From: Chloroflexota bacterium
GTDB lineage: Bacteria > Chloroflexota > Dehalococcoidia > Lucifugimonadales > GCA-002723415
Assembly: GCA_002723415.1 (NCBI GenBank)
Contig: PBOA01000009.1
Coordinates: 23,258 to 87,257 of the forward strand
Direction of reading: 5' to 3'
DNA: 64,000 bases
Shown: piece after piece, positions 16,713 through 17,794 of the stretch
Layout of the letters: the number at the start of each line of letters is the position of its first letter
Position numbering within the stretch: position 1 is the first letter of the stretch
Notes under the pieces: model-generated
Database searches by the model: none
Seen by the model: only the letters and a program-made list of their open reading frames with translations
What the model was told of the DNA's origin: nothing
Position numbers and translations under genes: made by a program

Positions 16713-17729
16713 TTATCCTCCAATATGATACATTTCAACTTTTTCTTTTGTTTTGGATGATAAAGTTGCTCTTTCTTCGGAATACTTGTCTTTTCTAAAT
16801 CTCCATGTTTTAGATATTATTTCTTCTAAATCTTCATCTGTAGCCCCGCCTCTTAAATGGTTTTTCAAATCAACGCCTATGCTAGCAAATAAACATGTCA
16901 TGATTTTTCCATCAGAAGACAGCCTCATTCTTGTACAATCTCCACAAAATGGTTGAGATACTGATGATATAACTCCTATTTCACCTTTGCCATCTTTATA
17001 TTTATACCTTTTGGCAACTTCTCCCTTGTAATTTCTTTCAAATTCTTCTAATTTCATAATTTTATTTATTTTTTTAATTGTTTCTCCCGATGTAATAACT
17101 TCGTCTTTATTCCATTTATTTAAAGTTCCAACATCCATGTACTCAATAAAACGAACTATATAATTTTTTTCTTTACAAAATTTAGCTAAATCTAAAACTG
17201 AATCCTCGTTTATTCCTTTTCTCACAACACAATTTATTTTTATTGGATAAAAACCAGCCTTATCTGCAGATTCAATTCCTTTAATTACTTCATCTACCCC
17301 AAGGTTTCTTCCATTCATTTTTTTAAATACTTCATTATCTAAAGAATCTAAACTTACAGTTATCCTTTTTAATCCTGATTTATATAATGGTAATGCCATT
17401 TCTTTAAGAAGGTAACCATTTGTTGTCAAAGTAAGATCAAGCAATCCATGAATTTTTACTAATTTTTCAATTAATTTATCAATATTTTTTCTCAGTAATG
17501 GTTCTCCGCCTGTTAATCTAATTTTTTCAACCCCCAGCCGTACCATAATACGAGCTAATCTATATATTTCATCAAACGTCATTAACTCTTTTGACTGAAG
17601 AAATTGATATCTTTCTCCGTATACTTCTTTTGGCATACAATAAGGACACCTAAAATTACATTTATCTATTAAAGAAATACGAAGGTCCCTGAGGGGTCTT
17701 TGATAAACATCTTTTATATTTGAAAGAAT
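16713..17729 (-). CDS. moaA: GTP 3',8-cyclase MoaA (extended 5' of the ORF track; probable ATT start)
   Basis: In-frame upstream codons encode DVYQRPLRDLRISLIDKCNFRCPYC (radical-SAM CxxxCxxC); C-terminal PFCGDCTRMR...C; no ATG/GTG/TTG between TAA at 17750-17748 and the motif. Confidence 0.93.
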   Translation of the reverse strand: MLSNIKDVYQRPLRDLRISLIDKCNFRCPYCMPKEVYGERYQFLQSKELMTFDEIYRLARIMVRLGVEKIRLTGGEPLLRKNIDKLIEKLVKIHGLLDLTLTTNGYLLKEMALPLYKSGLKRITVSLDSLDNEVFKKMNGRNLGVDEVIKGIESADKAGFYPIKINCVVRKGINEDSVLDLAKFCKEKNYIVRFIEYMDVGTLNKWNKDEVITSGETIKKINKIMKLEEFERNYKGEVAKRYKYKDGKGEIGVISSVSQPFCGDCTRMRLSSDGKIMTCLFASIGVDLKNHLRGGATDEDLEEIISKTWRFRKDKYSEERATLSSKTKEKVEMYHIGG

Positions 17730-17794
17730 TTTACTATGTCCTTTCTTTTATTATTACTTTTGCTATTTAATTATAACAAAGTAGCAATATAAAT

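Follow-up and report, generated by a model that had tools for sequence, protein, structure and literature searches.

In the genome examined here, that of an AT-rich marine bacterium of the SAR202 type (Chloroflexota, Dehalococcoidia), the moaA gene for GTP 3',8-cyclase is devoid of any normal start codon, and its translation almost certainly begins at an AUU located behind a strong ribosome-binding site. The gene lies within a stretch of 64,000 nt (hereafter, the window), corresponding to positions 23,258-87,257 of PBOA01000009.1 in assembly GCA_002723415.1 (this genome, G000), and its order-level comparator is the genome G015. In all probability, moaA is an intact and functional gene translated from the AUU at 17729-17727, a start that would keep MoaA at a permanently low level and would be as old as the clade carrying it. 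No description of an AUU start for moaA was found in the literature.

The moaA frame, its signals and its predicted product

The moaA frame lies on the minus strand, opens past the TAA at 17750-17748 and reads KKGHSKILSNIKDVYQRPLRDLRISLIDKCNFRCPYCMPK..., with no ATG, GTG or TTG in frame before the ATG at 17636-17634 (Table 1). The three cysteine codons of the radical-SAM CxxxCxxC motif (17660, 17648 and 17639) are all located upstream of this first ATG, and the motif is included only if translation begins upstream of 17660. When all table-11 starts are allowed, the sole long ORF is the ATT-started one of 338 aa; ATA 17717 is in frame too. The absence of a canonical start upstream of the radical-SAM motif had been reported in an earlier note on this DNA, and every detail given there checks out on the sequence, including an AAAGGA at 17744-17739, 9 nt before the in-frame ATT, which turns out to be part of the longer element AGAAAGGA. 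The 16S rRNA of G000 ends in ...GGATCACCTCCTTTCT, and its duplex with the moaA Shine-Dalgarno (SD) sequence has a calculated energy of -10.0 kcal/mol, placing it in the top 2.4% of internal-ATT background sites; the median among clear ATG genes of the same genome is -4.0 kcal/mol. Further upstream lies a candidate extended -10 promoter element within the block TTTGnTATAATTAAA, which is unchanged across every ATT/ATC lineage of the alignment (A1), although a simple promoter scan did not select its hexamer. If this element acts as a promoter, the transcript would start near 17763 and carry a leader of ~34 nt.

Table 1. Features of the moaA region and genes of G000 with proposed non-canonical starts (window positions, unless a contig of G000 is named).
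Feature	Position	Strand	Remark
moaA (GTP 3',8-cyclase), proposed CDS, ATT to TAA, 338 codons	16713..17729	-	TIGR02666; 1TV7 alignment
ATT, proposed AUU initiation codon	17727..17729	-	aligns with ATG of G015 allele
TAA closing the frame upstream	17748..17750	-	in frame
CNFRCPYC (CxxxCxxC), radical-SAM [4Fe-4S] cluster motif	17637..17660	-	residues 23-30 of the ATT-start protein
ATG, first canonical codon in frame	17634..17636	-	gene callers' start, giving a 307-aa product without the cluster motif
Shine-Dalgarno AGAAAGGA, 9-nt spacer to ATT	17739..17746	-	8-nt perfect complement of the G000 16S 3' end
TGtTATAAT, candidate extended -10 promoter element	17770..17778	-	block TTTGnTATAATTAAA
rdgB/Ham1-type dITP/XTP pyrophosphatase, upstream neighbour, other frame	17795..18424	-	PF01725
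rnhA (RNase HI), start 3 nt past moaA stop	16323..16709	-	PF00075
moaC, next Moco biosynthesis step, ATG start, two genes downstream of moaA	15817..16305	-	PF01967
carB, ATC 7 nt after AAGGAG	4661-4663	+	G015 ATG nearby; no canonical start before conserved N-terminus
mog/moaB (MoCF_biosynth domain), ATT after AAGAG	C14:45151-45153	+	aligns near Met of G015 orthologue
truA	C5:43765		needs ATT/ATC/ATA start; Pfam domain upstream of first canonical codon
GT4 glycosyltransferase	C16:60225		needs ATT/ATC/ATA start; Pfam domain upstream of first canonical codon
ABC ATPase	C25:37194		needs ATT/ATC/ATA start; Pfam domain upstream of first canonical codon
argB	C33:50626		needs ATT/ATC/ATA start; Pfam domain upstream of first canonical codon
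tsaE	C19:9396		needs ATT/ATC/ATA start; Pfam domain upstream of first canonical codon
ABC permease	C6:17284 and C12		needs ATT/ATC/ATA start; Pfam domain upstream of first canonical codon
infC	C31:66996		needs ATT/ATC/ATA start; Pfam domain upstream of first canonical codon

The protein read from the ATT has the features of a complete MoaA. Against TIGR02666 (cut-off 284.05), the 338-aa product scores 391.6 bits over profile positions 2-336 of 336, and the Pfam Radical_SAM domain begins at its residue 18; the 307-aa product that starts at ATG 17636 scores 335.9 bits, with profile positions 1-32 missing and 56 bits lost. Residues 3-338 align unshifted to residues 3-340 of the Staphylococcus aureus MoaA (1TV7, 1TV8), and thus the ATT start yields the same N-terminal length as that of a solved, active enzyme. 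The Cx2Cx13C motif of the C-terminal auxiliary cluster (CGDCTRMRLSSDGKIMTC) and the terminal Gly-Gly (...YHIGG before the stop) are present as well, and both align to 1TV7. The two proteins are therefore collinear over their full length, with the same motifs at both termini (1TV7, 1TV8, 2FB3; TIGR02666), the start codon being the only difference in an enzyme that otherwise looks ordinary. These features predict a MoaA that carries both Fe-S cluster motifs and converts GTP to 3',8-cH2GTP.

The surroundings of the gene are likewise in order. Within window positions 15230-19462 (minus strand), the genes follow one another as class I aldolase, rdgB, moaA, rnhA, moaC and pth; the RNase HI gene sits between moaA and moaC, an order common to all clade relatives and to G015. 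Elsewhere in G000, the frames of MoaE, MoeA, MoaC and a Mog/MoaB-domain protein are open, as are those of three XDH/CODH-type molybdoenzyme large subunits (MoCoBD_1), so that the molybdenum cofactor (Moco) pathway and its client molybdoenzymes are intact. No Moco riboswitch (RF01055) was found in the genome, and the window holds no Rfam match of any kind. Translational read-through or coupling from rdgB was considered and rejected, since the two genes are in different frames, several stops lie between them and the conserved -10-like block separates them.

The start codon among relatives and its history

A canonical moaA start is found 16-35 codons before the D[KR]CN motif in 29 of 29 order-level relatives, and the G015-type allele (89% identity) has an ATG exactly 21 codons before DKCN, which is the position of ATT 17729. 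A protein search returned five more clusters at the 90%-identity level, which are called as 307 aa, are 81-91% identical to the query and likewise have no canonical start. Four other lineages have ATT as the homologous codon, and a fifth has ATC; among the individual sequences, L115-L120 and L201 carry ATT, and L121 (a type seen on 20 contigs) and L203 (a JGI contig) carry ATC. A pattern scan of metagenomes recovered two contigs, one of them too short upstream. The proposal of the earlier note that translation starts at the AUU at 17729 gains support from this comparison, in which G015 has ATG at the same codon and the other lineages have ATT or ATC.

The sequence on either side of this codon evolves differently. 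Codons 2-31, all of which lie upstream of the first ATG, show dN/dS values of 0.05-0.4 between lineages, and the dS between the window and L121 is ~0.87 in these codons and ~1.0 in the rest of moaA, a pattern indicating that the 30 codons following the ATT are under purifying selection. No indels occur downstream of the ATT, whereas 2-nt (non-3n) indels are found between lineages just upstream of it, and thus no reading frame is conserved there. As judged from the alignment, no near-cognate codon other than ATT/ATC is conserved where the conserved coding frame begins at its 5' end; both being ordinary Ile codons too, their conservation alone leaves a slight probability of a stranger start just upstream.

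The signal that precedes the codon is conserved in turn. Each ATT/ATC lineage has an SD 7-9 nt before the moaA start codon, with energies from -5.2 to -10.0 kcal/mol, whereas in the ATG lineage the value is -1.5 kcal/mol, i.e., essentially none. SD strength thus runs inverse to start-codon strength between lineages, which suggests that the conserved quantity is the total strength of initiation. Such a relation between sister alleles is what would be expected if the level of expression, and not the identity of the codon, is selected.

The protein tree unites the ATT/ATC sequences with the ATG group in a single clade, which sits on a long stem and in which the ATG group (G015, P0003-P0005) is nested beside L115-L118. 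The ATG allele of G015 (L002/L035, CAZDRU010000023) has highly diverged codons 2-31, a highly diverged upstream region and no SD. When compared with L116, its dS is 0.17 in codons 32-338 and 1.87 in codons 2-31, and the upstream regions are unrelated. This allele thus appears to be a mosaic, its 5' end having been replaced by recombination with a breakpoint near the Cys motif, rather than the outcome of a simple reversion. Read most economically, the data place ATT (or another ATH codon) in the ancestor of the clade and imply that it has been kept from then on, which would make moaA a clear natural case of a weak start codon kept over long divergence. As a separate observation, the L120:1501 region (ERZ23495213 scaffold_9909) carries a TAG in place of the Tyr codon within CxxxCxxC (CP-stop-C), explicable by an error in sequencing, by decay of this copy or by a pseudogene at the level of the strain.

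Near-cognate starts in G000 and the possible role of a weak start in moaA

The start of moaA is one of several of its kind in this genome. All open frames of G000 were compared with 1.2 Mb of G015, a genome further removed than its moaA would lead one to expect (median best-hit identity 43%), which gave 728 usable pairs, and a gene was counted where homology continued past the first canonical codon for 8 or more residues in the upstream direction and an ATT, ATC or ATA lay behind an SD. Homology was used because an exact-substring survey found an SD match of at least 4 nt in only ~43% of clear ATG genes, so that SDs alone cannot find starts genome-wide. At least 10 of the 728 genes (~1.4%; a lower bound, as only these pairs were usable) start at ATT, ATC or ATA (seven, two and one, respectively), namely mog/moaB, truA, a GT4 glycosyltransferase, an ABC ATPase, argB, moaA, infC, tsaE, an ABC permease and carB. 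AUU starts are thus not rare in this genome, which qualifies the remark in the earlier note that they are rare in bacteria. In all eight scanned genes other than moaA, the first canonical codon lies downstream of the point at which the Pfam domain begins (profile positions 1-4); the ninth, carB, rests on its alignment to G015. In mog/moaB, the first ATG, GTG or TTG is residue 100 of 161, and this would be a second Moco gene with an AUU start. The SDs of the ten non-canonical genes have a median energy of -7.55 kcal/mol against -4.0 kcal/mol for ATG controls (p = 0.004), a comparison that is partly circular, since the SD helped choose the codon in some of the ten. The same pipeline run on G015 returned 2 of 728 genes (infC, and ruvX with CTG) versus 10 of 728 in G000 (Fisher p = 0.04), the GC content of the two genomes being 31.6% and 30.3%, respectively. 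Homology also extends upstream of the first canonical codon of prfB (RF2) in G000 (C16:42480-43535, minus strand) and in its G015 orthologue; we attribute this to the well-known programmed +1 frameshift, and the gene was left out of the count.

One cause considered for this habit was an initiator tRNA whose G-C pairs number fewer than three. The initiator tRNA gene is absent from the G000 assembly, in which each of the two tRNA-CAT genes detected has a paired 1:72 position (elongator Met or Ile2 type); the only initiator gene seen is that of G015, which is canonical. A tRNA-Sec gene is present in G000.

For moaA, the mechanism that we propose is the following. On the short leader, a 30S subunit would be held by the 8-bp pairing of AGAAAGGA with the 16S 3' tail, which would put the AUU in the P site, where the initiator tRNA would read it as Met and give rise to the 338-aa MoaA with its two Fe-S cluster motifs. 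As IF3 would disfavour the near-cognate AUU, the output of moaA per mRNA would be a small fraction of that of an AUG start, and the weak codon could thereby set a fixed low level of MoaA, the genome being streamlined and devoid of a Moco riboswitch. Initiation at AUU/AUC would have arisen at the base of a marine SAR202-type clade of ~30% GC and then persisted. Control of moaA by the Moco riboswitch (RF01055) would, like the proposed weak start, limit Moco gene expression post-transcriptionally; the weak start, however, would be a fixed set-point and not a ligand-responsive one, and the leader is merely ~34 nt.

Known AUU starts offer several points of comparison. In E. coli reporters, near-cognate starts yield 1-2% of the AUG level (10.1101/063800). 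The only confirmed AUU starts of E. coli are those of infC (IF3) and pcnB (poly(A) polymerase I) (10.1101/063800; Binns and Masters 2002, cited in PMC13009471). As in moaA, the AUU of these two genes stands behind an SD, and there the weak codon limits translation and is disfavoured by IF3. Unlike infC, moaA encodes a cofactor biosynthesis enzyme, has none of the autoregulatory logic of infC and is known from sequence alone; moreover, AUU in G000 is one of many such starts and not the rare exception that it is for infC and pcnB. In S. aureus, extended SDs direct initiation at the weak codons of cvfC1 (AUU), ccpN, citZ and infC (AUA), reaching ~10% of the AUG level (PMC13009471). These genes share with moaA a low GC content, a conserved weak codon, a long SD (8 nt in moaA) and proper spacing, and theirs is the pattern that moaA fits best among the known cases. 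The present set differs in coming from the phylum Chloroflexota, in comprising at least 10 genes per genome versus 4, and in having been read from genome sequence only. With moaA, the few conserved AUU starts on record (infC, pcnB and the S. aureus genes) would be joined by a non-regulatory enzyme gene from Chloroflexota, and G000 would lend itself to large-scale study of how start codons are chosen.

Why the AUU start exists is a point on which a second account departs from the set-point proposed above, while agreeing with it in everything else. In that account the AUU, although truly used as the start, is no regulatory device: AT-biased mutation (ATG to ATT) in a small genome of 30% GC would have produced it almost neutrally, and it would be tolerated because very little MoaA is needed and the strong SD rescues enough initiation. 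We regard this as quite possible, though not as the probable explanation. ATT, ATC and ATA starts do occur in ~1.4% of testable genes of unrelated functions, the affected genes mostly encode low-abundance enzymes, and the ratio of 7 ATT to 2 ATC to 1 ATA loosely tracks the Ile codon usage (50% ATT, 7% ATC and 43% ATA). However, the site has been kept as ATT or ATC over a dS of ~1, although a single T-to-G change restores ATG; SD strength, as described above, varies inversely with the strength of the start codon; and G015, whose GC content is nearly equal, has five times fewer such genes. In either account, MoaA would be made from the AUU at a low, fixed rate.

A broader interpretation takes the 1-2% of genes with AUU, AUC or AUA starts behind extended SDs as a lineage-wide habit, at ~5 times the rate of G015. 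It would see in them an IF3-sensitive translational gene set whose output moves together with the level of IF3 or the state of the ribosome, and which replaces lost transcriptional regulators and riboswitches, perhaps with a retuned fidelity of initiation. We consider this interpretation tentative and rather doubtful.

Other readings of the start site and consequences for annotation

It is very unlikely that moaA starts at a non-canonical codon other than the ATT. Two kinds of position come into question, namely ATA 17717 and a codon between TAA 17750 and the ATT, e.g., AAG 17747. The former is in frame and is a table-11 start, but it lies 21 nt from the SD and is replaced by ACA in L115-L118, L120 and L121. 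The latter is a near-cognate of AUG, but it stands directly upstream of the SD and abuts it, and any start in this stretch has to contend with the 2-nt indels between lineages before the ATT. Of all the near-cognates, only the ATT is kept across all lineages, and it fits the N-terminus of the solved MoaA. A frameshift from the out-of-frame ATG 17710 was also considered and was rejected because that ATG is missing in relatives, which have GATATT or GATACT.

Even less credible is an origin of the ATT in faulty sequencing or assembly, or in a private mutation that inactivated an ATG, in which case moaA would be artefactual or a pseudogene of recent date. One G-to-T change would suffice for this, and G000 is indeed a metagenome-assembled draft of 37 contigs with an estimated contamination of 4.8%. 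Nevertheless, ATT occupies the homologous site in 4 of 4 contigs from three samples (ERR594339, in both ENA and Logan, ERR594323 and ERZ8580415), and the ERZ8580415 contig carries a SNP at 17802 relative to the window and hence represents a different strain. The earlier note had named an ATG in reads or close relatives as the observation that would speak against an AUU start, and no ATG is present in these four independent assemblies. Also at odds with an error or a pseudogene are the ATT or ATC codons of five further lineages (81-91% protein identity), the intact 338-codon frame with its low dN/dS (~0.1-0.2) and the intactness of the remaining Moco pathway and client enzymes. Separately, near-identical gene copies are found on different contigs of G000 (C6:224-1183 and C12:48371-49330; C1:6667-7563 and C23:1305-2201), some of them near contig ends, which suggests assembly redundancy or strain mixing, in agreement with the 4.8% contamination.

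Least probable of all is translation from ATG 17636 into the publicly called 307-aa protein: this codon is the first canonical start and the one chosen by Prodigal-type callers, but no SD precedes it, its use would remove all three cluster cysteines and profile positions 1-32 of TIGR02666 (391.6 falling to 335.9 bits), and codons 2-31 upstream of it show purifying selection with synonymous changes, so that it is refuted as the source of the functional product, even if a minor product of internal initiation may arise there.

The 307-aa call is nevertheless the form in which moaA is found in public collections. Gene callers that accept only ATG, GTG and TTG produce a MoaA without the catalytic Fe-S motif, and at least six public 90%-identity clusters are shortened in this manner. 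By the same logic, ~1-2% of the genes of this abundant ocean group, including mog, argB, carB and truA, would be miscalled, and miscalled starts can distort the metabolic reconstructions made from metagenome-assembled genomes. A 338-aa product with Met as its first residue has no record, which is a weak negative, as callers restricted to ATG, GTG and TTG would record such a product only from an ATG allele. One orthologue has already been annotated from its ATT: cluster P0001, named "GTP 3',8-cyclase MoaA [SAR202 cluster bacterium]" by NCBI, contains a protein beginning MRSNTTD..., and the corresponding DNA (GCA_022447045.1, JAKUTW010000005) begins ATT CGT TCA AAT, so that the NCBI pipeline had in this case picked the ATT start.
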